Below are positions 1 through 26,055 of a stretch of 32,000 nt of DNA, piece after piece. Below the pieces are notes generated by a model. The model was not told where the DNA came from and searched no databases. It was given only the letters and a program-made list of their open reading frames with translations. Source of the DNA: Amorphus coralli DSM 19760 (GTDB lineage Bacteria > Pseudomonadota > Alphaproteobacteria > Rhizobiales > Amorphaceae). Position 1 is the stretch's first letter. Each line of letters begins with the position of its first letter. Where the stretch lies: contig NZ_KB894577.1 of the NCBI RefSeq assembly GCF_000374525.1, positions 154,126 to 186,125 of the forward strand. Direction: 5' to 3'. A program made the position numbers and the translations under genes.

Positions 1-112
1 ACTGGCTGTAGAGCGCGACGACGATGACGCCCGCCACCAGGAGCGCCGCCGTACTCCAGATAACGGAAAGGAGAAAAAGACGGCGGGCGAGCGAATTAGG
101 ATAGGGCCGCAT
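1..112 (-). CDS. sensor histidine kinase, N-terminal fragment (runs off the window)
   Basis: ATG at 112-110 overlaps the response-regulator stop. Translation MRPYPNSLARRLFLLSVIWSTAALLVAGVIVVALYSQ is a basic stretch plus a TM helix, typical of a cognate kinase downstream of an OmpR-type regulator. Confidence 0.5.
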   Translation of the reverse strand, partial: MRPYPNSLARRLFLLSVIWSTAALLVAGVIVVALYSQ

Positions 113-788
113 CGTCCCCGGCACCTTCTCGCGGCTCTGCGATCCGATAGCCGAGACCGCGGATCGTCTCGATGATCGGCGCGCCGACCTTCTTGCGAAG
201 CCGGCCCACGAACACCTCGATCGTGTTGGAGTCGCGATCGAAATCCTGGTCGTAGAGGTGCTCGATCAGCTCGGTCCGCGAGACCACGCGGTCCTTGTGC
301 AGCATCAGATAGGCCAGCAGCCTGTATTCGTGCGAGGTGAGCTTCACCGTCTGACCGTCGACGGCGACCCGGCCGGAGCGGGTGTCAACCTCCACCGGCC
401 CGCAAGAAACGACATTGCTGGCGTGGCCGGCCGAGCGCCGCACCAGGGCGCGTAACCGCGCCAGCACCTCTTCCATGTGGAAGGGCTTGGCCACGTAGTC
501 GTCGGCGCCGGCGTCGATGCCGGCCACCTTGTCGCTCCAGCGATCGCGGGCTGTCAGAAGCAACACCGGCATGGTCCGCCCGTCGCGCCGCCAGCGCTCC
601 AGGACGGAGATCCCGTCCATCATCGGCAGGCCGATATCCAGCACCACCGCGTCGTAGGGCTCGGTGTCGCCGAGGAAATGGCCTTCCTCGCCGTCTTCCG
701 CCACGTCGACCACGTAGCCGGCATCGCCCAGCGCGCTCTTCAACTGGCGCAACAGATCCTGATCGTCCTCGACGACGAGTATCCGCAT
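96..788 (-). CDS. OmpR/PhoB-family two-component response regulator
   Basis: 230 aa. Receiver domain (MRILVVEDD...DAVVLDIGLPMMDG...KPF) plus winged-helix output (LTSHEYRLLAYLM...TIRGLGYR). Confidence 0.9.
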   Translation of the reverse strand: MRILVVEDDQDLLRQLKSALGDAGYVVDVAEDGEEGHFLGDTEPYDAVVLDIGLPMMDGISVLERWRRDGRTMPVLLLTARDRWSDKVAGIDAGADDYVAKPFHMEEVLARLRALVRRSAGHASNVVSCGPVEVDTRSGRVAVDGQTVKLTSHEYRLLAYLMLHKDRVVSRTELIEHLYDQDFDRDSNTIEVFVGRLRKKVGAPIIETIRGLGYRIAEPREGAGDDAALS

Positions 789-4728: not shown

Positions 4729-5002
4729 CGGCAATCTCCATGAGAAGGGTTTTCAGGCGCGCGTTTTCCTCGGCCAGCGCCGAGACGATCTCCGCACCGC
4801 TGGCGAGGGCGAGCTGGTTGGCGCGGGCCTGCCGCAGGCGCTCTGTCGAGGCAGCCGTCCGGAATTCCGCCTCGCACGCCGCACGGCCGCGTTCGAAGGC
4901 CAGGTCGATGGCCCGCCAGGCCAGCGCGGCCGCGGCGGCAAGGACAACACCCTGCCACTTCACCTTCCCGACCAGCGTCAGGACGGCGGCAAGAACGGCC
5001 AT
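4601..5002 (-). CDS. i-spanin-like protein (Rz-like): N-terminal TM plus coiled coil
   Basis: The ATG shares 1 nt with the endolysin stop (TGATG). N-terminal hydrophobic segment, then a helical Ala/Glu/Arg-rich region (ERLRQARANQLALASGAEIVSALAEENARLKTLLMEI). Confidence 0.5.
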   Translation of the reverse strand: MAVLAAVLTLVGKVKWQGVVLAAAAALAWRAIDLAFERGRAACEAEFRTAASTERLRQARANQLALASGAEIVSALAEENARLKTLLMEIADDARDLSDGDACGLGADGLRLLDRLSGSPEPGGSTGGPHPRL

Positions 5003-6063
5003 CACGGGGCACCCCCGAGCCAGCCGGGCAACGCGCCTGCCCGCTTCAGCATCCGCCAGGCCTGCAGGCCCAGAAGAAGCGCCACCGCGAGGCCCAGCAC
5101 GCCGTAGAGCGCCGTTCCAGGGGAAAACACGGCCTGGCCGTGGCGCGCCGCCTCCGCCGCCTGCTCCACACCCTGGCCGACCAGGCCGGCCCCGGCGAGC
5201 GCCCCCGATCCGCCTGTCACCGCCGCCTGGCGGGTGGCGGCGGCCTGCTCGGTCTCCTCTCCGGGAGAGGCAGAGACCCCTGCCACTTCGAGATCCGCGC
5301 GTGCCATGTCCGCGCCGGCCGGCTCGCCGCGTCGCTGCGCCGCAACCATCGCGTCGATGGCGGTACGCGTCCGCGGCCCCAGAACGCCGTCGATTGCCAG
5401 CCCGTTCTGGCGCTGCACCACCCGCACGACAAAGACGGTGCGCGCGTCCACCAGCCCGTTCACCGGCACCACGTAGCCGAGGCGGGCAAGCTTGGCCTGG
5501 ACATCCCGCACGACGGCGCCTTCATGGCCGGCGCGCAGGATCGCTTCATCGGGATCCCGCGCCCCGGGTGACCGCTGGGCGGGAACCGGCCTCGCCGCCG
5601 GGTACGCCTTCCAGGGCAGTTGCCAATGGGGATAGTCCCGGAAGCGCTGCCAGTCGCCACCCCACTCCACCGGCACGCCAAGCTCCCGCGCGGCCGTCTT
5701 CACCGCCATTTCCAGCCGGCGCCAGGCATCCGCACCCTGCGGCGACGCCGGGTTCGCCCAATGGTCGGTTCCGTCGATGGTGCCGTCGCCATCCACGTCG
5801 AAGGCCAGCACCAGGTCGACCGCATGACCGACACCGTTGGCCGCCTTCAGATGCCGGGAGTTCATGGTTCGCGACACGCCCCGGCGCACATAGTCGCGCT
5901 GGCGGGCGACACTTCTGACGCCTTCGAAGACGCGAAACGGCACGGGTGTCAGCATGGCCGCGCGCGCCACCACGCGCACCAGGTCCGGATGCACGCCGGC
6001 AAGCGCCGCGCGGTCGCGCGACGTGAGGGTCATCGACATCAGCTCGTCTCCGGTATCGGTCAT
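5002..6063 (-). CDS. endolysin: peptidase M15 (VanY / L-Ala-D-Glu peptidase-like) + PG_binding_1 domain + C-terminal TM helix
   Basis: M15 motifs SRHL...GHAVDL and WGGDW...DYPHWQL. PG-binding repeat VRDVQAKLARLGY...GLAIDGVLGPRTRTAI. C-terminal helix ALYGVLGLAVALLLGLQAW. An alternative start at 6039 has a better SD. Confidence 0.8.
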   Translation of the reverse strand: MTDTGDELMSMTLTSRDRAALAGVHPDLVRVVARAAMLTPVPFRVFEGVRSVARQRDYVRRGVSRTMNSRHLKAANGVGHAVDLVLAFDVDGDGTIDGTDHWANPASPQGADAWRRLEMAVKTAARELGVPVEWGGDWQRFRDYPHWQLPWKAYPAARPVPAQRSPGARDPDEAILRAGHEGAVVRDVQAKLARLGYVVPVNGLVDARTVFVVRVVQRQNGLAIDGVLGPRTRTAIDAMVAAQRRGEPAGADMARADLEVAGVSASPGEETEQAAATRQAAVTGGSGALAGAGLVGQGVEQAAEAARHGQAVFSPGTALYGVLGLAVALLLGLQAWRMLKRAGALPGWLGGAP

Positions 6064-12563: not shown

Positions 12564-12580
12564 TGGCTTTGATCCTTTCT

Positions 12581-12722
12581 CCCCTCACGCGGAGTTCGCT
12601 CCGCTCACTCGCTCCGGGTGGGCGGCCTCCGGCCGGCGCACGGTCGCGCGCTGGCGGGCGCAGTCCGGGAAGGCCGTGCCTTTTTCTCCGCTCACCCCCG
12701 CGAAGGCGGGGGTCCAGGGCGG
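12581..12722. repeat. mosaic repeat block (family C module + one family A hairpin unit) between g11 and g12
   Basis: CCCCTCACGCGGAGTTCGCTCCGCTCAC...CGGCGCACGGTCGCGCGCTGG recurs at 14555, 16992, 21322 and 23655. The family A unit lies at 12688-12720. Confidence 0.85.
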
Positions 12723-12747
12723 AAGATTGCTGCCTGTGTGTCACCCC

Positions 12748-13345: not shown

Positions 13346-13510
13346 TCAGGATGAATCGTGTTGATCGATGAGTGCCCGCAGTCCGGCCGCCGCGCCCGTC
13401 CCGGGCGGCTCCAGCGCGGCGCGGAGTTCCGGCAGGCTCATGGCCCAGAAGGACGCGGGCGACAGCCGCATCTGCCCCAGCCCGAACCGCATCGCCTCGG
13501 TCCAGGGGAA
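13346..13510 (-). CDS. g10.1: GTA g10.1-like small tail-assembly protein; conserved part only, no canonical start upstream
   Basis: FPWTEAMRFGLGQMRLSPASFWAMSLPELRAAL matches the conserved small protein between g10 and g11. Immediately upstream the frame runs into family B repeats, with no ATG/GTG/TTG before FPW; the first ATG is internal at 13492. Confidence 0.5.
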   Translation of the reverse strand, partial: FPWTEAMRFGLGQMRLSPASFWAMSLPELRAALEPPGTGAAAGLRALIDQHDSS

Positions 13511-13517
13511 GGCCCGA

Positions 13518-13615
13518 GCGCTTCCAGGCGAAGTGGAAACCGGTTCGCCGTCCGGAAGCGCGGCTAAACAAGCGCTTCCAGGAAAAGTGGGCACCGGTTT
13601 TCCGTCCGGAAGCGC
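13518..13615. repeat. two tandem family B double-stem hairpins (13518-13561, 13572-13615; 54-nt period)
   Basis: GCGCTTCC-A-GGCGAA-GTGGAAACCGG-TTCGCC-GTCC-GGAAGCGC and GCGCTTCC-A-GGAAAA-GTGGGCACCGG-TTTTCC-GTCC-GGAAGCGC. Confidence 0.9.
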
Positions 13616-13662
13616 GCAGGAAGATTCTGCCGCCTCGCCGTCTTTGCGAAGGCCAGGCGGCT

Positions 13663-14007
13663 CTAGAGAGGGTTTTCGCCCGCTTCCTCCTCCCCCGCCC
13701 CGAAGGTCGCGGTCAGGAGATCGGTCACGATCGCGGCGAACCCCGCCGCCCCTCCGGGCGTGGTCATCGCCGCCACCTCGTCGTCGGACACCGGGTTGCC
13801 GGCGCCCCGGAGGCCCGCTCCGATCACCCGCACGGCGTCGCCGGCCTTGAGCCGGCCGGAACCGAAGCGTTCCGCCAGCGCCACCAGGTCGTCGGCCTGG
13901 AAGGCCGTTTCCAGCTCCGCCAGCGCCCCCAGCGTCAGGCACAGGGTGAAGCGGCGCCCGTCGAAGACGGCGGCGACCTCGCCGCGATGCCGGTTCGCCA
14001 TGGTCAT
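13663..14007 (-). CDS. g10: GTA tail assembly chaperone (RcGTA g10-like)
   Basis: 114 aa, ATGA overlap with g9. The motif GEVAAVFDGRRFTLCLTLGALAELE is typical of the GTA family protein. Confidence 0.8.
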   Translation of the reverse strand: MTMANRHRGEVAAVFDGRRFTLCLTLGALAELETAFQADDLVALAERFGSGRLKAGDAVRVIGAGLRGAGNPVSDDEVAAMTTPGGAAGFAAIVTDLLTATFGAGEEEAGENPL

Positions 14008-14417
14008 GCCGCCGCAAACGTCAGTTCGCCGGCCGATTCCAGCGAGATCTCGTAGTTCACCTCGCCATCATGATTGCCGGCATAGTCGAGACCGGTCAGC
14101 TGGAACGGCCCGGACACGGTACCGAAGTCCGGGATCACCACCTGCCAGCTCCGGATCGCGCCGGCGAAGAAGATGGTGCGCGCCGCGGCATCCGAGGCGC
14201 CGTCCTTGAAGATGCCCGAGCCCGACAGGCTGGCGCGCCGCACACCGGCCCCGTCCAGGAGTTCCCGCCAGCGCCCGGCCGACTCCGTGTCGGTCACGTC
14301 GACCGCATCGGCGTTGAACGACAGCCGCCGCGCCCTCAGCCCGGCCACCGTTACGAACGACCCCGCCCCGCTCTGGTCGAGCCGGAGCACGAGGTCCCTG
14401 CCCCGCTGTGCGCCCAT
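14004..14417 (-). CDS. g9: GTA major tail (tube) protein (RcGTA g9-like, TP901-1 family)
   Basis: ATG 14417 is preceded by AGGGAGG. 137 aa with the motif GSGIFKDGASD...FQLTGLDYAGNHDGEVNYEISLESAG. Confidence 0.85.
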   Translation of the reverse strand: MGAQRGRDLVLRLDQSGAGSFVTVAGLRARRLSFNADAVDVTDTESAGRWRELLDGAGVRRASLSGSGIFKDGASDAAARTIFFAGAIRSWQVVIPDFGTVSGPFQLTGLDYAGNHDGEVNYEISLESAGELTFAAA

Positions 14418-14443
14418 GCGCGCCTCCCTTGTCTGGTGGAAGA

Positions 14444-15116
14444 GCAAAGCCAGGCGAAGTGGGAACCGGTTCGCCGTCCGGCTTTGCGGAGTGAAAGAGC
14501 AATCCCAGGAAAAGTGGGAACCGGTTTTCCGTCCGGGATTGCGTGGAAAAGATGCCCCTCACGCCGAGTACGCTTTGCGCACCGGCTCCGCGTTTTTCCC
14601 GCTCACGCCGAACTCGCTTCGCGCGCCGGCTCCGCGAGGGCGTGGGTGTTTCTTTCCGCTCACGCGAGTTCGCTGCGCTCACCGCTGCGCGGGCGCGGCC
14701 TCCGGCCGGCGCGCGGTCGCGCGCTGGTGGGAGTTGTCCGGCAAGGCTGAACTTGTTGAGGGAGCGCGCGCCCCAAACTCCGCTCATCCCCGCGAAAGCG
14801 GGGATCCATAGGGCCTGTCAGCCGACACCCAGCGGAATGATGGATGTCTCAGACCCAGCCCAGAACTCCGCTCATTCCGGCGGAGGCCGGAATCCAGTTG
14901 CGGAGGAACTCCAGGCTGACTCGGCAAGAGGATGGGCGCAGCCACCGGCAGCGGGCCTCATCCCACCGCGCCGTGCGGGGCAAACTCGGCCCCTGGGTTC
15001 AGGCATTCGCCGGAACGAGCGGCTGGGGAAGGACCGTCGGGCATCTGAGCCCGCAGTCACAATCAAGCACCCAGCCAGCTTCTCCGCCGATCCCGACGAA
15101 AGCCGGGATCAGCCCG
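14444..15116. repeat. repeat block: two family B hairpins (14444-14487, 14499-14542), composite mosaic copy I (14555-15022), one degenerate A unit (about 15070-15116)
   Basis: Direct comparison with the blocks at 16992, 21322 and 24100 shows the same module order. Confidence 0.9.
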
Positions 15117-16950: not shown

Positions 16951-16985
16951 AGAAAAGAAAGGCCCGGCTTCGGGTGAAGCCGGGC
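16951..16985 (-). terminator. rho-independent terminator (minus strand) immediately upstream of the g6 SD
   Basis: On the minus strand: GCCCGGCTTC-ACCC-GAAGCCGGGC (perfect 10-bp stem) followed by CTTTCTTTTCT. Confidence 0.6.
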
Positions 16986-16991
16986 ATTTAT

Positions 16992-17726
16992 CCCCTCACG
17001 CGGAATTCGCTCCGCTCACCCGCTCCGGGTGGGCGGGAGTCTTTTCCGCTCACGCCGAACTCGCTTCGCTCGCCGGCTGCGCGAGGGCGCCCTGACCGGG
17101 CGGCGGACGGTCGTCCGCGGGTTGGAGTTGTCCGGGAAGGCCTGACTTGGATGGGACAGCGCCGGCCCCACCCTCCGCTCATTCCGGCGAAGGCCGGAAT
17201 CCATAGGGCCTGTCGTCAGTCTCCCAACGGAATGATGGGTTGCACAAAGCCCACCCCAACCTCCGCTCATTCCGGCGAAGGCCGGAATCCAGGTACGGCG
17301 GGAAACCAGGCCGACGCGGGAAAAGGAGTGGCGCAGCCGCCGGCAACGGGCCTCATCCCACACCGCCGCCCGCAGCGACCTCAGTAACTGGATTCCGGCC
17401 TTCGCCGGAATGAGCGGGGGATGGAAGGGCCCGTCATCCCGCAACCCAGCGGGATCACTCCAGCATCAGCCCACACTCCGCTCATCCCGACGAAAGTCGG
17501 GATCCAGGGCCGCAGTCCGCAGGATCGGAGTTCGACCGCCCTGGACCCCGGCTTTCGCCGAGGTGAGCGGCTAAGGGGGAAAACCCGTCAGCCCGCCACC
17601 TCAGCTGGATCACTCCAGCACCCGCCCCACCCTCCGCTCATCCCCGCGCAGGCGGGGATCCAGGGCCACGGGCCGCAGCGTCGGAGACTGCAGCCCTGGA
17701 CTGCCGCCTGCGCGGGAGTCAGCGGG
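16992..17726. repeat. composite mosaic copy II (16992-17417) plus two further roughly 151-bp units, each ending in an inverted family A doublet (17478-17570, 17634-17725)
   Basis: Module-by-module match to copies I, III and IV. It fills the 813-bp gap between g5 and g6. Confidence 0.9.
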
Positions 17727-19892: not shown

Positions 19893-20116
19893 CCTCTGAC
19901 TTGCCGAACACCTCCAACCAGCGCACGACCGTGCGCCGCACACGCAATCGCAGGAAAAGTGCCCTTGCGGTTTTCCGTCCGCGATTGCGACCCAGAGATC
20001 ATCAGGCCACCCTCCCGGAGCCGGTGCGCGCAAGCGCACTCGGCGCGAGGGGCAAAAAAGGTCATTCGCCCCGCAAAGCCGGACGGAAAACCGGTTCCCA
20101 CTTTTCCTGGCTTTGC
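19893..20116. repeat. mosaic repeat block (family C pieces in reverse orientation; family B hairpins at 19944-19988 and 20073-20116)
   Basis: The reverse complement of 19893-19940 matches GGCGGCGCRCGGTCGCGCGCTGGTGGG...; the B units have intact outer and inner stems. Confidence 0.85.
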
Positions 20117-20117
20117 T

Positions 20118-20307: not shown

Positions 20308-21306
20308 TCATCCCTCCGGCGCGGCCGGATCGCCGCGCGGCGAGTAGCCCACCGCTGCCCGCTTCTCGTCGTCGGAGAGGAACGAGGCCTCTTCCAGCCG
20401 CCGCCACAGCGCCTCGCGCTCCGACGACAGCGCCTCCACGCCGTCGGCATCAAAGGCGAGCCGCAGCCCCTCGCCGAAGGCGGGCCCGAGCCAGCCGCCG
20501 ATCGCCGCCGCCGTGCGCCCGACGAGCGGCAGCACCGTCTGGCGCCAGAACGCCCGGTTCGCTTCCTGGAAGTTGGCGTAGGTGTTGTCGCCGGGGATGC
20601 CGAGCAGCATCGGCGGCACCCCGAAGGCGAGCGCGATCTCCCGCGCCGCCTGGTTCTTCGCCTCGATGAAGTCCATGTCCTTGGGCGTGAGCGCCATCGC
20701 CCGCCAGTCGAGCCCGCCTTCCAGAAGCAGCGGCCGCCCGGCGTTGCGCGCCCCCTGGTAGCCCTCCTCCAGCTCGCCCTTCAGCCGCTCGAACTGATCC
20801 GACGTCAGCGTCCCGTCGCCGCCGGAATAGACCAGCGCGCCGGAGGGCCGCGCTGCGTTGTCGAGCAGCGCCTTGTTCCAGGCACCGGCGGCGTTGTGGA
20901 TGTCGAGGCTCGTCTGCGCCGCCTCGATGGGCGCGAAACCGTAGTGGTCGTTGAGCGGATGGAACAGCGTCAGGTGCAGGATCGGCGACGCCCCCTCCTC
21001 GCCCGCCGGAAACCGCACCGAGCGGCCGTTGACGGTGTACTCGAACGCCTCCGGCCAGCCGCTCGCTCCCGGCAGAACCTTCATCCGGTCGGGCCTCAGC
21101 GCGAACAGCTCGCGCACCCGTCCCTCGACGCTGACGGCCTCCAGGTAGGCGTTGCCGGCCACCAGCAGGTGGCCGTAGAGCGCCTCCATCAGCCCCGTCC
21201 CCGCCTGGCCGGCGTTCGGCTGCGCGATCACCGGCCCGGTGCGCGAGGCCTTCGCCTCGGGCGCGGCTTTCCCGCCCGCCCGCCTGAAGACGCGATCGAT
21301 CAGCAT
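20308..21306 (-). CDS. g3: GTA portal protein (HK97 family; RcGTA g3-like), apparently about 55-60 aa shorter than usual
   Basis: AAGAGGA SD. MLIDRVFRR...EAKASRTGPVIA joins directly to QPNAGQAGTGLMEALYGHLLVAGNAYLEAV...; the rest is a typical portal (NAARPSGALVY, FIEAKNQAAREIALAFGVPPMLLG). Confidence 0.85.
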   Translation of the reverse strand: MLIDRVFRRAGGKAAPEAKASRTGPVIAQPNAGQAGTGLMEALYGHLLVAGNAYLEAVSVEGRVRELFALRPDRMKVLPGASGWPEAFEYTVNGRSVRFPAGEEGASPILHLTLFHPLNDHYGFAPIEAAQTSLDIHNAAGAWNKALLDNAARPSGALVYSGGDGTLTSDQFERLKGELEEGYQGARNAGRPLLLEGGLDWRAMALTPKDMDFIEAKNQAAREIALAFGVPPMLLGIPGDNTYANFQEANRAFWRQTVLPLVGRTAAAIGGWLGPAFGEGLRLAFDADGVEALSSEREALWRRLEEASFLSDDEKRAAVGYSPRGDPAAPEG

Positions 21307-21321: not shown

Positions 21322-21753
21322 TTTCGCTCACGCCGAGCTCGCTTCGCTCGCCGCTGCGCGGGCGCAGCCTGTTGTCTGTCCCCCTCACGCCGAGTTCGCT
21401 GGCGCTCACCGGCTCCGGGTGGGCGCCCTGACCGGGCGGCGGACAGTCGTCCGCTGCTGGAGGCGGTCCGGAGAGACTTGAGTTGGCTCACTCCGAAGTT
21501 GCCGCAACCTCCGCTCACTCCCGCGTAGGCAGGGATCCATAGGGCCTCTCAGCGATCTCCCAACGGGATGATGGCTCACTCCGCACCCACCCCAATCCCC
21601 GCTCATTCCGGCGAAGGCCGGAATCCAGTTGCGGCGGGAAACCAGGACAGCCCGGCAAGTGGATAGACGCAGCCACCGACAACGGGCCTCATCCCACCAC
21701 GCCACCCGCAGCAATCTCGGCATCTGGATTCCCGCCTTCGCCGGAATGAGCGG
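21322..21753. repeat. composite mosaic copy III filling the g2-g3 gap
   Basis: Same C - A(...CATAGGGCC) - spacer(...CCCAACGGRATGATGG...) - A doublet order as copies I and II. Confidence 0.9.
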
Positions 21754-21773
21754 GGTTTGAGGCGCACACCCCC

Positions 21774-23132
21774 TCAGACCCGCCGGATCGCCGGGCGGCT
21801 GACCGGCCCCAGCATCAGCGCGGTGATCGCCCAGACCAGCGCGTCGAGCCGGTCCGGCGAGCGCCCGTTCGCGGTGCCGTCCGGGCCGAAGCCGCAGAGC
21901 TCGTCCTCCAGCTCCGGGAATGCGCCGGCATGGCGCACCCGGCCCTGGGCGTAGAGCGTCGCCACCGGCTCCGCCCGCAGCCACTTGCCGCGGCTCGCCC
22001 GCACGCTCGTCACCGGCACGCCGGCATCCACCTGGCGGATCACCGCCGCCACCATGTCGCCGCCCTGGTTCACCTCGGCGACCAGCGCGTCCGCCTGGAA
22101 CCGCCGGTAGGCCGCCACCGCCTTCGCCGCCCACACCGCCGGTGCCGCCGCCGCCACCGTCTCGTCGGCCAGCACGTAGCCGATCCCGTCCGCCGCGATG
22201 CCCGCCGCCACGATCCCGCACACCGAGGCCCTGCCGCCCGCCGCCGGCGGGTCCACCGCCACCACGATGCGGCTCATCTCCGGCGCGCCGTCGACCCGTG
22301 CCCGCTCCACCGTCGCCCGGCTCCACAGCGCGTCCTCCCGGTCGGTGAGGATCTCACCGTCCAGCTCCTGCCGGCCGAGCCGGGTGCCGCGATAGCGCCC
22401 CACCACCCGCTCCAGGAAGCCGGGCGCCAGATTGGCCGCGTTGTCCTTCGTCGGCATCCGCGCCACTTCCGTGCGCGGCGCCTCCATCAGCCGTGCCAGA
22501 AGCGGGATCGGCCGCGGCGTCGTCGTCACCACCTGGCGCGGCCGCTCGCCGAGCCTGAGCGCGAACTGCAGCATGTCCCACGCCTCCTCCGCCAGCCGCC
22601 ACTTGGCCAGCTCGTCGGCCCAGGCGGCGCCGAACTGCGGCCCGCGCAGGCTTTCCGGATCGTCGGCGGAAAACAGCTCCGCCACCGCGCCGTTCTTCCA
22701 TTCCAGCCGCCGGCGCGAGGGCTGCCACAGCGGCCGCTCGTCGGCGGCATGCACCGACAACAGCCCCGACACGCCCTCCACCATCACGCCGCGCGCGTCG
22801 ATCAGGGTTTCGCCGACAAGCGCGATCCGGCCGACGGGCGCGGAGGCGAACCCGTCGCGGCCCAGCGCCATGCCCTTCACCCATTCCGCGCCCGCCCGCG
22901 TCTTGCCGGCGCCACGCCCGCCCAGGATCAGCCAGACGGTCCAGTCGCCGTCGGGCGGCAGCTGCTCGTCGCGGGCCTGGAACATCCATTCCCGCGCCAG
23001 CCACGCCAGCGTCTCCGGCGGCAGCTCGGCCAGGAACGCGGCGCGCTCATCCGGGTCGAGCCCGTCGAGCGAGCCGATCAAGGCGGTCCGCAAGGTCCTG
23101 TCTGAGGGTGTCGATGTCCGGCCGGTGTCCAT
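21774..23132 (-). CDS. g2: GTA large terminase (RcGTA g2-like)
   Basis: Walker A motif LILGGRGAGKTRAGAEWV and a conserved N-terminus LIGSLDGLDPDERAAFLAEL. The start at 23132 is chosen by homology and overlaps the g1 3' end; alternative TTG at 23093. Confidence 0.9.
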   Translation of the reverse strand: MDTGRTSTPSDRTLRTALIGSLDGLDPDERAAFLAELPPETLAWLAREWMFQARDEQLPPDGDWTVWLILGGRGAGKTRAGAEWVKGMALGRDGFASAPVGRIALVGETLIDARGVMVEGVSGLLSVHAADERPLWQPSRRRLEWKNGAVAELFSADDPESLRGPQFGAAWADELAKWRLAEEAWDMLQFALRLGERPRQVVTTTPRPIPLLARLMEAPRTEVARMPTKDNAANLAPGFLERVVGRYRGTRLGRQELDGEILTDREDALWSRATVERARVDGAPEMSRIVVAVDPPAAGGRASVCGIVAAGIAADGIGYVLADETVAAAAPAVWAAKAVAAYRRFQADALVAEVNQGGDMVAAVIRQVDAGVPVTSVRASRGKWLRAEPVATLYAQGRVRHAGAFPELEDELCGFGPDGTANGRSPDRLDALVWAITALMLGPVSRPAIRRV

Positions 23133-24057
23133 GCGCCGCCTCTCCGCCGTCTGCCTGCGCCTTGCGGTCGAGGGCGAGCAGGATGTCCAGAGTGCGCGCC
23201 AGCGCCGCCAGCACCCTGGTGTCGCGTTCCGCGTCCTCGGCGGCATCGGGATCGAAGCGCGCCTCGATGGCCGATATCCGCGCCTCGAACACCCGGTAGA
23301 GCCGGGCGATCATCGCGGCCCGGTCCGACGGCGAGCGGTGCAGCGCCCGGCCCTGCGGCCGGCGCGGCAGTGCGGGTTTGGATGGAGAGTTCTTGCCGCG
23401 CAGATGCGCTGAATTCTCTCCACTCACGCCGATCTCGCTTCGCTCGCCGGCACCGCGAGGGCGGCCTGGTTCTTCAGGTCGCAAAGCCGGACGGCGAACC
23501 GGTTCCCACTTCGCCTTGCTTTGCTCGGGCGGCGCGCAGTCGCGGGCTGGTGGGTGCTGTCCGGCGGGGCCCAGTTCGGGGCCCTCCGCCGCCTCCCCCA
23601 AACGCCGCTCCTTCCCGCGAAGGCGGGAATCCAGGGCTTCAGGCTTCGGACCGTATTGTTTGCCCCTCCCGCCGAGTTCGCTTGCGCTCACCGGCTCCGG
23701 GTGGGCGCCCTGACCGGGCGGCGCGCAGTCGCGCGCTGGTGGGTGCTGTCCGGCGGGGCCCAGTTCGGGGCCCTCCGCCGCCTCCCCCAAACGCCGCTCC
23801 TTCCCGCGAAGGCGGGAATCCAGGGCTCCAGACTCCGAACCCGGCGGGCCGGCGTCCGTCCCGTCCAGCCCCGTGCGGCCCCTGACCCTTGGCGGCCTGA
23901 GCGTCCGGTCCCAGCCCTCCCGGCGGGCGCGGTCGCGCAGCCCGGATTCGGACATGCCGTAGCGGTCGCCGATCTCCCGCAGCGTTCCCACACCCGCCTC
24001 GAAGGCGGCTCTTGCGGCCGCCCAGTCCGGTCTGAACGACGGAAGGGGCTGGTCCAT
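23047..24057 (-). CDS. g1: GTA g1-like (small-terminase-type) protein carrying a roughly 430-bp in-frame repeat-derived insertion
   Basis: N-terminal HTH-like module MDQPLPSFRPDWAAARAAFEAGVGTLREIGDRYGMSESGLRDRARREGWDR and C-terminal helical module AMIARLYRVFEARISAIEARF...DIDTLRQDLADRLDRLA are in one uninterrupted frame. They are separated by translated repeats. Confidence 0.55.
   Translation of the reverse strand: MDQPLPSFRPDWAAARAAFEAGVGTLREIGDRYGMSESGLRDRARREGWDRTLRPPRVRGRTGLDGTDAGPPGSESGALDSRLRGKERRLGEAAEGPELGPAGQHPPARDCAPPGQGAHPEPVSASELGGRGKQYGPKPEALDSRLRGKERRLGEAAEGPELGPAGQHPPARDCAPPEQSKAKWEPVRRPALRPEEPGRPRGAGERSEIGVSGENSAHLRGKNSPSKPALPRRPQGRALHRSPSDRAAMIARLYRVFEARISAIEARFDPDAAEDAERDTRVLAALARTLDILLALDRKAQADGGEAAHGHRPDIDTLRQDLADRLDRLARRARPG
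23405..23832. repeat. repeat block inside g1: family C pieces, family B hairpin (23481-23524), and a 112-bp segment duplicated with a 189-bp period (23527-23638 and 23716-23827), each ending in a family A unit
   Basis: The two 112-bp copies differ at a single position by eye (CGCGGGCTGG vs CGCGCGCTGG). Confidence 0.9.
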
Positions 24058-24099
24058 GATGCGCGTGTCCCTCTGCCAGAAATGAAACCTGTTCACGTC

Positions 24100-24491
24100 G
24101 CGAGCACGAACGGAAAACCGCGAGAGCACTCTTCCTGCGCTCGCTCGACCGGCGCGTGGTCGCGCACTGGTTGGCGTGATCCGGCAAGATGGTGGTCGGT
24201 TCGGGAGGAGCCCGCCCCATCCTCCGCTCATTCCCGCGAAAGCGGGGATCCATAAGGCCTGTCGGCGAGCCCGATGACATGCAAGATGTCTCCCCGGCCA
24301 AACCAAACGCCGCTCATTCCCGCGAAGGCGGGAAACCAGGGCGGCACGCCGCAGCCGGAAAATTCCACCTCTGACCATCCCGGGAACCGCAGTTACCGGC
24401 GACCAAAGCTCAGGTCGATGCGGGGCGAATGGGAGTTCACGGAACTTCGGAGACCGAAGCCCTGGATGCCCGCCTTCGCGGGAATGTGCGG
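24100..24491. repeat. composite mosaic copy IV (degenerate B hairpin 24100-24144, C remnant, A unit, A doublet 24310-24491) 43 nt upstream of the g1 start
   Basis: Module order matches copies I-III. Confidence 0.85.
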
Positions 24492-24597
24492 ACAAATAGG
24501 GATCGCCGAGGCACACCAGCCGCCCGTCCCGATCCGGGACCACGCCCGGCGCCCTCCTTCCGGAAGCCCCCGGCCGCAGCTGTCCGACGATGCCTGA

Positions 24598-24703: not shown

Positions 24704-25315
24704 TCACTCCTTAAGATCAGGAAGAATACTCCCGAAAATTCCTGGAACAGCTGGGAGACCAAGTGCACCTATCCCGAATGGCGCTGAAATGGGCGATGTG
24801 GATTGGCGATACATAAGCGCGGCGACTACGCTGCTCTTTGAAAGGGCCTCGCAGAGGCTGTGCATTTTTATTTTAAGGGCATCAACCTCCATAACTTCGT
24901 CATAGAAGCGCTTTGCCGGCCATACTTCGTCAGGCACATCAAGCTTGCTACTAGCCTTTACCACGAGAAATCGAACGGAGCCCGCATCATCATTCTCCGG
25001 ACCAAACAGGTCATGAGCCATCATATTCCTAATCGGCGACTTATCTGAAATTCTTTGGAGCGCGGATTTATAGGACGTTATCTCATCTCTATTTAGAGGC
25101 GAAATATCGACTAAAGTCTTAGAAATTTTGATTTTATTACTAAGTGTAATGTTTTTACATAGGATTATTCTTTGGATATCGGTTAATTCAAGACTTTTTG
25201 AGATGGCGTTGTTCAACGAGCCTTCCATGATAGCCCAGCGTTGAAGGAAGAATCCAACGAGAGCACATGCAGCAATTTGCGAAGGAGTATTTTCAGGAAG
25301 TCGCACTGACCGCAC
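24704..25315 (-). CDS. HEPN-motif protein (putative RNase toxin / abortive-infection effector) in an AT-rich islet
   Basis: 203-aa ORF (GTG start; alternative starts downstream). R-x4-H motif with the canonical Asn (IRNMMAHD, residues 96-101). Hydrophobic Gly-rich C-terminus FGIGALGLPAVPGIFGSIL. Base composition is clearly AT-richer than the flanks. Confidence 0.5.
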   Translation of the reverse strand: MRSVRLPENTPSQIAACALVGFFLQRWAIMEGSLNNAISKSLELTDIQRIILCKNITLSNKIKISKTLVDISPLNRDEITSYKSALQRISDKSPIRNMMAHDLFGPENDDAGSVRFLVVKASSKLDVPDEVWPAKRFYDEVMEVDALKIKMHSLCEALSKSSVVAALMYRQSTSPISAPFGIGALGLPAVPGIFGSILPDLKE

Positions 25316-25354
25316 CCCAATTCATTGAAGAAGGCGCTCAATTATAATAGGGGC

Positions 25355-25525
25355 CTATCGATCCGCGATATATTCAAGTATCTCTCGGATCGAGGTTATC
25401 TCGAATCTTATCCGGGTAATCTCATCAACCAAATAGCTAAGTTGTATTCCAGGCATATTGTCAATAGAGACGCCCTCAGTCTGTTTAGCCCTCTCTTTAA
25501 TGACCTCTTCCGCATTGTGGTGCAC
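25355..25525 (-). CDS. small acidic hypothetical protein (56 aa) upstream of the HEPN gene
   Basis: Not in the ORF track (below the size cut-off). GTG 25525 lies 5 nt after AGGAGG. Sequence: VHHNAEEVIKERAKQTEGVSIDNMPGIQLSYLVDEITRIRFEITSIREILEYIADR. Confidence 0.35.
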   Translation of the reverse strand: MHHNAEEVIKERAKQTEGVSIDNMPGIQLSYLVDEITRIRFEITSIREILEYIADR

Positions 25526-25597
25526 AGCATCCTCCTATGATTGTTGTATAGGGATGATACCATCGACACCTTCCATGTCACGCCCATCCCCTTCACT

Positions 25598-26008
25598 CCG
25601 CTCATTCCCGCGAAGGCGGGAATCCAGGGCTGCGGGCATCAGGGCAAGCTGTCGTAGAGATCGCTCCAGGTCGGGTTCAGCCCTTCGATCAGTCGAAGCT
25701 TCCAGCGCCGGCGCCACTTCTTGATCTGCCGCTCGCGCACGAAGGCGGCCTCGCGGGTGTCATGCACCTCGTACCAGACCAGCCCGGCAACGCCGTAGGT
25801 TCGGGTGAAGCCCGGCCTGAGCCTGGTCCGATGCTCGTGGACGCGTCGGGCAAGATCGTCCGTATGGCCCGTATAGAGCGTCCCGTTCGGCTCGCTGGCG
25901 AGAATGTAGACGTAGAAGGCCATCGGTCCGCCGCCGCTGCTGTCCGGCAGTCTACAGCATCCTGCAGCGCAAGCCGCCCTGGATTCCCGCCTTCGCGGGA
26001 ATGAGCGG
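25598..26008. mobile_element. GIY-YIG gene flanked by perfect 33-bp terminal inverted repeats of family A (candidate autonomous/parent unit of the repeat family)
   Basis: 25598-25630, CCGCTCATTCCCGCGAAGGCGGGAATCCAGGGC, is the exact reverse complement of 25976-26008. Only the GIY-YIG ORF lies between them. Confidence 0.5.
25639..25923 (-). CDS. GIY-YIG (URI-domain only) nuclease family protein
   Basis: 94 aa. MAFYVYILASEPNGTLYTGHTDDLARRVHEH...E.QIKKW is the classic COG2827-type GIY-YIG core. Confidence 0.9.
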   Translation of the reverse strand: MAFYVYILASEPNGTLYTGHTDDLARRVHEHRTRLRPGFTRTYGVAGLVWYEVHDTREAAFVRERQIKKWRRRWKLRLIEGLNPTWSDLYDSLP

Positions 26009-26055
26009 CGTTTGGGGTGGCGCGCGGTGCCTCCTCAACCGGCCTCCCCCCACCC

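Follow-up and report, generated by a model that had tools for sequence, protein, structure and literature searches.

The only small terminase of a gene transfer agent (GTA) to have been characterized experimentally is gp1 (rcc01682) of the Rhodobacter capsulatus agent, RcGTA, a protein of 107 aa with three helices and no helix–turn–helix (HTH) domain (PMC6854486). In phages, the small terminase (TerS) combines an N-terminal HTH, a coiled-coil oligomerization core and a C-terminal segment that binds the large terminase, TerL (PMC6854486, PMC11841831). A published generalization holds that the small terminases of known GTAs are without a DNA-binding domain, a property that has been tied to random packaging (PMC11841831). 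Here, we describe g1, the putative small-terminase gene of an RcGTA-type cluster in a 32 000 nt stretch of contig NZ_KB894577.1 of Amorphus coralli DSM 19760 (hereafter, the window), in which an array of palindromic repeats lies within the coding sequence.

Short imperfect palindromes that form mosaics, occur in both orientations and sit in the intergenic spacers of operons are represented by the repetitive extragenic palindromic (REP) sequences and bacterial interspersed mosaic elements (BIMEs) of enterobacteria and by the Rhizobium-specific intergenic mosaic elements (RIMEs) of rhizobia. These elements are normally strictly extragenic. The insertion of palindromic repeats into genes in frame is an already known kind of event: Rickettsia palindromic elements (RPEs) and other intragenic elements of the MITE, ERIC and BOX types are described as in-frame fusions with their host genes (Ogata et al. 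2000, as summarized in PMC10969869). We propose that selfish palindromic repeats have probably occupied a disordered linker of g1, that selection has kept the reading frame and that the gene is not broken.

The g1 open reading frame (ORF) runs on the reverse strand as a single frame (24057–23047) that is free of stops through an HTH-like N-terminal module, a linker and a helical C-terminal module, as the first-pass annotation of this DNA had recognized (Table 1). We take the ATG at 24057 as its start, where the N-termini of the orthologues align. Residues 9–54 match phrog_1206 (‘terminase small subunit’, E=1.8e-11) and, more weakly, phrog_370, phrog_2606 and phrog_509, and AlphaFold2 (AF2), given an alignment of 10 homologues, places three helices within residues 12–47 with a predicted local distance difference test score (pLDDT) of 91–95. 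The C-terminal module, 60–94 % identical to its orthologues, is modelled as helices at residues 243–267, 273–302 and 313–333 (pLDDT 80–88). The linker between the two modules comprises 187–188 residues and is predicted to be disordered: residues 56–221 are modelled devoid of secondary structure at a pLDDT of about 40, and 65 % of the repeat-encoded residues are glycine, proline, arginine, alanine or glutamate. General searches with g1 added little, since Foldseek of the AF2 model against the PDB gave only generic HTH matches with E above 1, a PDB sequence search gave one irrelevant coiled-coil match, and the Pfam and NCBIfam scans gave nothing useful.

The assignment of g1 to the small-terminase type is supported by similarity to phage TerS proteins and by synteny. 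Its N-terminal HTH is related to that of phage TerS: the HTH of an Amorphus orthologue (P0003) is 44–50 % identical, by tblastn, to the N-termini of annotated TerS proteins of phages HK639 and SEN34 and of Erwinia phage 49, residues 9–143 of the same orthologue align with the TerS of Pseudomonas phage Cruim01 (E=6e-4, 75 % of the length of P0003), and g1 homologues bear the Pfam domains HTH_28, HTH_23 or HTH_7. The gene lies directly upstream of terL in a translationally coupled arrangement; the overlap of the two genes is also present in other Amorphus, and the same g1–terL arrangement is found at seven loci (L002–L008). Alignment with Amorphus puts the terL start at TTG 23093, with ATG 23132 as an alternative, and TerL is 86 % identical to that of Amorphus orientalis (residues 1–439). 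The kinship with RcGTA gp1 that came with the first-pass assignment did not stand equally well. A profile search with the C-terminal module gave 327 matches, the best 120 of which are Hyphomicrobiales, Parvibaculales or Cohaesibacter-type proteins of 88–203 aa; because none of these 120 has a Rhodobacterales label, sequence homology to gp1 is not demonstrated.

The insert in g1 is palindromic DNA of a kind that this genome carries in multiple copies, and elsewhere in the window there are many further occurrences of the families found between the modules. The composite element combines a family-A hairpin (TTCCCGC-CTTC-GCGGGAA) with a B hairpin and a C module; it is present twice inside g1 and recurs in the same orientation at 21539–21381, 17203–17042, 14808–14653 and 12720–12581, the first three of which are matched by copy 1 in a BLAST search of the window (79.5 % for 21539–21381). 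Family-A hairpins number 12 in the window against 0.04 expected, and their variants are compensatory (TTCCCGC/GCGGGAA versus TTCCGGC/GCCGGAA), so the stem has been preserved. A 57 nt element of another family, 98 % identical to 14442–14488 in the opposite orientation, interrupts copy 2 and is missing at this junction in metagenomic contigs of relatives (L001, L009–L011 and L018). Palindromic families occupy nearly all of the intergenic gaps of the cluster (12576–12730, 13510–13616, 14436–15110, 16970–17680, 20002–20117, 21327–21770, 24092–24510 and 25573–26024), amount to more than 2 kb in total and have stretched the cluster to about 17.3 kb, and the g1 linker is the only intragenic repeat site within the window. 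The whole window had no Rfam match at the gathering threshold, no RAYT-type transposase was seen in it, and no intrinsic terminators were found inside the insert. Folded as single-stranded DNA, the insert is overall no more stable than shuffled sequences (z=−1.2), and only its local hairpins are meaningful.

A 189 bp (63-codon) tandem duplication had been read into this array. The two 112 nt segments concerned, 23527–23638 and 23716–23827, are indeed identical at 111 positions and spaced by exactly 189 nt, and the 37-aa peptide ALDSRLRGKERRLGEAAEGPELGPAGQHPPARDCAPP is present twice in the g1 product, as that annotation implied; LGEAAEGPELGPAGQHPPAR is one of the peptides that the array would encode. 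The duplicated stretch, however, is 127 nt long (23526–23652 versus 23715–23841, five mismatches), identity on either side of it is at random level, and Tandem Repeats Finder reported no tandem repeat at a 189 nt period. The 62 nt that separate the duplicated stretches are the diverged C module of the same composite element. A head-to-tail duplication of 189 bp, of which only 127 nt would be common, was therefore rejected, and the 189 nt periodicity is that of two adjacent composite elements, the second with the 57 nt element nested in it.

Table 1. Features of the g1–terL region, in window coordinates
Feature	Position	Strand	Remarks
terL (g2)	21774..23093	-	Pfam Terminase_6N and Terminase_6C; overlaps the 3′ end of g1 by 47 nt
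g1 ORF, putative GTA small terminase	23047..24057	-	336 aa; ATG 24057 to TGA 23047–23049
C-terminal three-helix module, residues 243–336	23050..23331	-	Presumed oligomerization and TerL-binding core; AF2
Native linker part, C-terminal side	23332..23383	-	Aligns with orthologues
36 nt hairpin-forming insert (AGAGAATTCAGCGCATCTGCGCGGCAAGAACTCTCC)	23384..23419	-	No second copy in the window; missing in L001 and the Tara contigs
C module of copy 2	23420..23468	-	90 % identical to 17094–17045; common to L001 and the Tara contigs
57 nt palindromic element, other family (GTGGGAACCGGTTCGCCGTCCGG type)	23469..23525	-	Nested between B and C of copy 2
Composite copy 2, A and B modules, 127 nt	23526..23652	-	96 % identical to 23715–23841, 189 nt apart
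Composite repeat copy 1, 189 nt	23653..23841	-	A hairpin and B (23715–23841), then C′ (23653–23714)
Native linker part, N-terminal side, residues 56–72	23842..23892	-	L001 has a stretch of similar length before its repeat
N-terminal three-helix HTH module, residues 1–55	23893..24057	-	phrog_1206, AF2, phage TerS similarity

The insert is missing from the orthologues of g1, and in the window the frame of the host gene runs through it without a stop. The two-module homologue has 179 aa in both Amorphus orientalis and Amorphus sp. 3PC139-8, and two further assemblies encode versions of 178 and 166 aa. At the seven loci L002–L008 (Amorphus, Parvibaculaceae, Cohaesibacter and others), where terL and the portal gene follow immediately, the protein has about 172–195 aa. 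We looked for an equally long linker in the repeat-free syntenic orthologues, and found theirs to be short, at roughly 15–35 residues. The repeats add about 157 codons to g1. The three-fold expansion suggested at first holds by comparison with the 107 aa of RcGTA gp1 (PMC6854486), but, because the true two-module orthologues have 166–195 aa, the expansion relative to these is 1.9-fold. A profile search over 1.84 billion representatives returned 5697 relatives, and among the best 150 of these the linker between the modules has a median of 30 residues and a range of 2–117, with the window the longest at 188. A reading of this distribution as one of GTA g1 genes was dropped: long-linker members (L015, L016 and L017) do not lie beside terL, and the distribution therefore shows only that the two-module type tolerates variable linkers. 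Protein-pattern scans of JGI metagenomes and IMG/VR with a repeat-less g1 construct returned nothing.

Six related metagenomic contigs (L001, L010, L011, L018, L020 and L021) have different arrays at the same site, all of them open in the g1 frame. The first has a complete ORF of 242 aa with one composite. L018, which like L019 was found by DNA pattern search, has at least three B–C modules and an open frame of 251 codons that reaches the end of the contig, with 4 and 5 stops in its other two frames; in L020 and L021 the frame stays open as far as the start of the contig and the other frames have stops; and the Tara contigs L010 and L011 are open, with two composites at a 204 nt period. Tandem arrangements of two or more composites are also seen in L011, L018 and L021. 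The indel lengths and periods of the arrays (189, 204, 90, 57 and 36 nt) are all multiples of 3, and every module is read in the same frame across the six contigs, which is the sole stop-free frame of these elements. In the window, the linker has no stops in 187 codons of the g1 frame against 2.9 expected at 73 % GC, each of the other two coding-strand frames has 2 stops within it, and composition-matched shuffles remain open in only 4–5 % of cases, so that the earlier estimate of frame retention as a roughly one-in-three event was too generous to chance. As there is one stop-free frame, and as the array must be translated for the C-terminal core to be made, selection would have kept the surviving variants open and in phase.

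Rates of substitution point in the same direction. The ratio of nonsynonymous to synonymous substitution rates (dN/dS) is 0.27 for the HTH module (versus L001) and 0.14–0.27 for the C-terminal core (between repeat-bearing lineages), and on the window’s own branch the core has 7 synonymous changes and 1 nonsynonymous change, terL 6 and 4; the host gene has been under purifying selection after the insertion. For the repeat-encoded segment dN/dS is 0.73–1.5, and therefore only openness and phase are conserved there. Because the modules are conserved as protein and the insert only as an open, in-phase stretch, these data argue for a tolerated disordered spacer, and against both inactivation and sequence-specific exaptation. 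Of the possibilities raised in the first-pass annotation, a linker that tolerates 150–200 repeat-encoded residues is the one borne out, by the short linkers of the orthologues, the kept frame, the purifying selection and the predicted disorder; exaptation of the repeat is not supported, given the dN/dS of the repeat-encoded segment, and inactivation finds no support in g1 itself.

The repeats have left their mark on public annotation. The database protein for this DNA (P0010; UniParc UPI00040C8A0F) has 498 aa and starts at GTG 24543 (23047–24543, reverse strand), an over-extension by 162 codons across upstream repeat copies that encode WIPAFAGMSG-type peptides, and g1 of the relatives is annotated as fragments of 88 or 106 aa. 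The 498-aa call is wrong, and the fragments arose, because repeat DNA corrupts the annotation of the gene.

We consider it unlikely that g1 is dead but still open, its function destroyed by the repeats and the damage masked by GC-rich DNA. Stops are rare at this base composition, and fewer than three are expected in the linker by chance; the portal gene of the strain has a 63-codon deletion of a conserved segment; and the repeats are spread across the whole cluster. Yet g1 has no stop or frameshift and neither module approaches a dN/dS of 1, selection is seen also on the branch specific to the window, and at least six differently built arrays in relatives are in phase and stop-free where other frames have 2–5 stops. 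Moreover, the insert lies exactly in the one stretch that, in orthologues, is short, differs from protein to protein and lacks structure, and no other GTA gene of the window has internal repeats.

Several points weigh against our view that the repeats are tolerated in a linker of a gene kept intact by selection. Synthesis of the g1 protein and its action as TerS are presumed from the genes. The structure of the array is that of a single assembly, the window’s own, and the metagenomic contigs of relatives all break inside repeats. The five indel lengths do not amount to five independent one-in-three events, because, in an array already in phase, unequal recombination between modules of the same frame keeps that frame automatically. 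In L009, a Tara contig of low coverage, the g1 frame is interrupted by a TGA 30 codons upstream of the family-A module, and the upstream composite (1–120) is out of phase; L009 is either a chimeric assembly or a strain with a naturally split g1. Finally, with a portal that lacks 63 conserved codons, the entire GTA of the strain may be defective.

A functional split, in which the C-terminal module is translated alone from an internal start as an HTH-less protein like RcGTA gp1, and the HTH and repeats are dispensable or separate, appears to us highly unlikely. The absence of an HTH from the three-helix gp1 (PMC6854486) and the similar size of the C-terminal module give this idea its appeal; the closest orthologues share a methionine that immediately precedes helix 1 (AAMIARLY), in the Tara lineage the module is preceded by an in-frame ATG (MAMRLRG), L009 has its upstream stop, and gene callers repeatedly give products of 88 or 106 aa. 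These short calls, however, all come from contigs that start inside repeats, and no Shine–Dalgarno-like sequence precedes the internal ATG at 23315–23313 or the GTG at 23427–23425. In a split gene the phase and openness of the array would be needless, yet both are kept, and the HTH module is itself under purifying selection (dN/dS 0.27).

There is very little probability that the second composite, and with it the 189 nt periodicity, is an artefact of short-read assembly. Short-read assemblies of relatives, and of what is apparently the same strain (L014, 1.3 kb), do break at the repeats, and the exact 336-aa and 498-aa products are unrecorded in the assemblies searched; against this, tandem composites occur independently in L011, L018 and L021, the two copies in the window differ at five positions and have different flanks, and UniParc holds the 498-aa translation of the same DNA. 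Least credible of all is exaptation of the repeat-encoded peptide for a specific role, for example in additional contacts with DNA or protein. The peptide is rich in arginine and could bind nucleic acid without specificity, and all relatives use the same reading frame; yet that frame is simply the only stop-free one of the elements, the segment evolves at a dN/dS of 0.73–1.5, its copy number and content differ between near-identical strains, and AF2 finds no structure in it.

Our data are best explained by a model in which the tether of g1 was colonized by the GC-rich palindromic mosaic repeats of the lineage, of REP/BIME- or RIME-like character, as the intergenic gaps were. A first composite of about 189 nt would have entered in the common ancestor of the window strain and several marine and metagenomic relatives, after which the array may have grown and shrunk differently strain by strain, with the window lineage gaining the second composite, the nested 57 nt element and the 36 nt hairpin. 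The approximately 160 repeat-encoded residues would act as an unstructured spacer without a sequence-specific role and as a long tether that links the DNA-binding domain with the core. A further idea, which we regard as unlikely, is that the array is a fast-evolving tether of strain-variable length that progressively uncouples sequence-specific DNA recognition from the packaging motor, an intermediate between the HTH-bearing TerS of the phage type and the TerS of RcGTA, whose lack of an HTH has been linked to random DNA packaging. If this were true, L009, with its upstream part out of phase and an ATG before the core, would represent the next step towards an HTH-less TerS.

The surrounding genes match the collinear gene set of an RcGTA-type head–tail cluster, head–tail adaptors, tail tube and TMP included, as seen from its set of Pfam domains and its collinearity with Amorphus orientalis at 55–95 % aa identity. 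Downstream of terL lie the portal gene, g3.5, protease, capsid and g6–g9, with g2–g9 conserved relative to Amorphus orientalis, followed by genes for a tail assembly chaperone (TAC), a DUF2460 protein, a Gp84_N/BR0599 hub, g14 and g15. The product of g15 has 1314 aa with GTA_TIM, Phage-tail_3 and Rcc01698_C domains. The Pfam domains of g5 and g10.1–g15 are near-complete except in g14, whose NlpC/P60 match is weak and sub-threshold (21.5 bits against a Pfam cut-off of 23). Three of 10 flanking ORFs tested match Pfam (response regulator, M15 peptidase and ABC transporter) and look cellular; the other seven had no match. Among the three with a match, the gene for an OmpR-type response regulator of 230 aa (96–788, reverse strand) and that for a peptidase M15 protein with PG_binding_1 (5002–6063, reverse strand) lie a few kilobases beyond g15.

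The portal gene (20308–21306, reverse strand; 332 aa) lacks exactly 63 codons (189 nt), a deletion specific to the strain, with the junction near 21221–21230. The missing segment corresponds to residues 29–92 in Amorphus (GRPVWTPRDY..LAREGY..VYR.VR.IAEAAASVP..HPLL) and is retained by each of the eight other clusters examined, among them that of the near-identical relative L020 (393 aa, flanks 100 % identical). Both ends of the deletion have TGATCGC microhomology, and the same deletion is present in an independent Logan contig (L014, from SRR892142).

Two other loci in the window also involve repeats. Two copies of a 53 nt GTGGGAACCGGTTCGCC-type element (13510–13616) lie downstream of a g10-like ORF (13663–14007) and within an open frame that differs from it (13346–14017, reverse strand) and leads into Phage_TAC_6 (ORF residues 170–215); if a chaperone frameshift product is made at 13346–14017, these repeats would be translated too. 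Just upstream of the cluster, a low-GC island (24704–25923; 0.52–0.60 versus about 0.70) is bracketed by family-A repeats and contains an ORF of 203 aa, with no Pfam or PADLOC match, and a GIY-YIG gene of 94 aa; PADLOC identified no defence system among the AT-rich upstream ORFs.

Outside the window, HTH and C-module homologues that lie away from terL (L015, 10001–10759; L016, 258–1055; L017, 1888–2718) have linkers of 88–117 residues. The L015 homologue follows rnpA and yidC, and its linker DNA holds a 159 nt self-complementary element, while that of L017 precedes a GTPase gene (MMR_HSR1) and an amino-acid kinase gene. In other lineages, some of the long linkers resemble translated palindromic repeats. 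The three genes at L015–L017 may be TerS-like genes that are orphans or have been relocated, from lineages in which terS is missing beside the terL of the GTA.

How, then, does g1 of the window compare with the described systems? Like the gene for RcGTA gp1, it stands at the head of its cluster directly before terL, and its three-helix C-terminal module, at about 95–110 aa, is close in size to the 107 aa of gp1. Unlike gp1, it carries an HTH, as do the syntenic orthologues of Amorphus, Parvibaculaceae and Cohaesibacter, and in the window gene this domain is under purifying selection; the g1 product thus does not share the lack of an HTH that marks gp1. With phage TerS it has in common an HTH of 44–50 % identity, the phrog_1206 match, the overlap with terL and a helical C-terminal part, but the 187 residues between HTH and core set it apart from the TerS of syntenic orthologues with their roughly 15–35. 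Across RcGTA-type clusters (L002–L008 and L012; Amorphus, Parvibaculaceae, Cohaesibacter and others), g1 encodes an HTH of the phage TerS type fused to a helical core. As far as gene content can tell, such HTH-bearing proteins go against the generalization that GTA small terminases have no DNA-binding domain (PMC11841831), and their occurrence in clusters of several families may matter more for GTA biology than the repeats themselves.

The repeats resemble REP, BIME and RIME elements in being mosaic palindromes that occur in both orientations, cluster in intergenic spacers and show compensatory changes in their hairpins, a likeness in general features; they differ in that one array in the window is intragenic. 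As with RPEs, short palindromic genomic repeats are found in frame here, have no counterpart in orthologues and specify a peptide that the host protein can accommodate, in a host gene that remains under selection. In contrast to RPEs, g1 has a multi-family GC-rich array (two composites, a 57 nt and a 36 nt element) confined to one linker, its copy number varies between close strains, and its peptide is apparently disordered instead of being conserved and amphipathic. The best-documented cases of genes colonized in frame by palindromic repeats are those of Rickettsia, and here such colonization is met in a packaging gene of a GTA, in a free-living, high-GC alphaproteobacterium. The multi-family array, which differs even between near-identical strains, offers comparative evidence that selection polices only its phase and openness.

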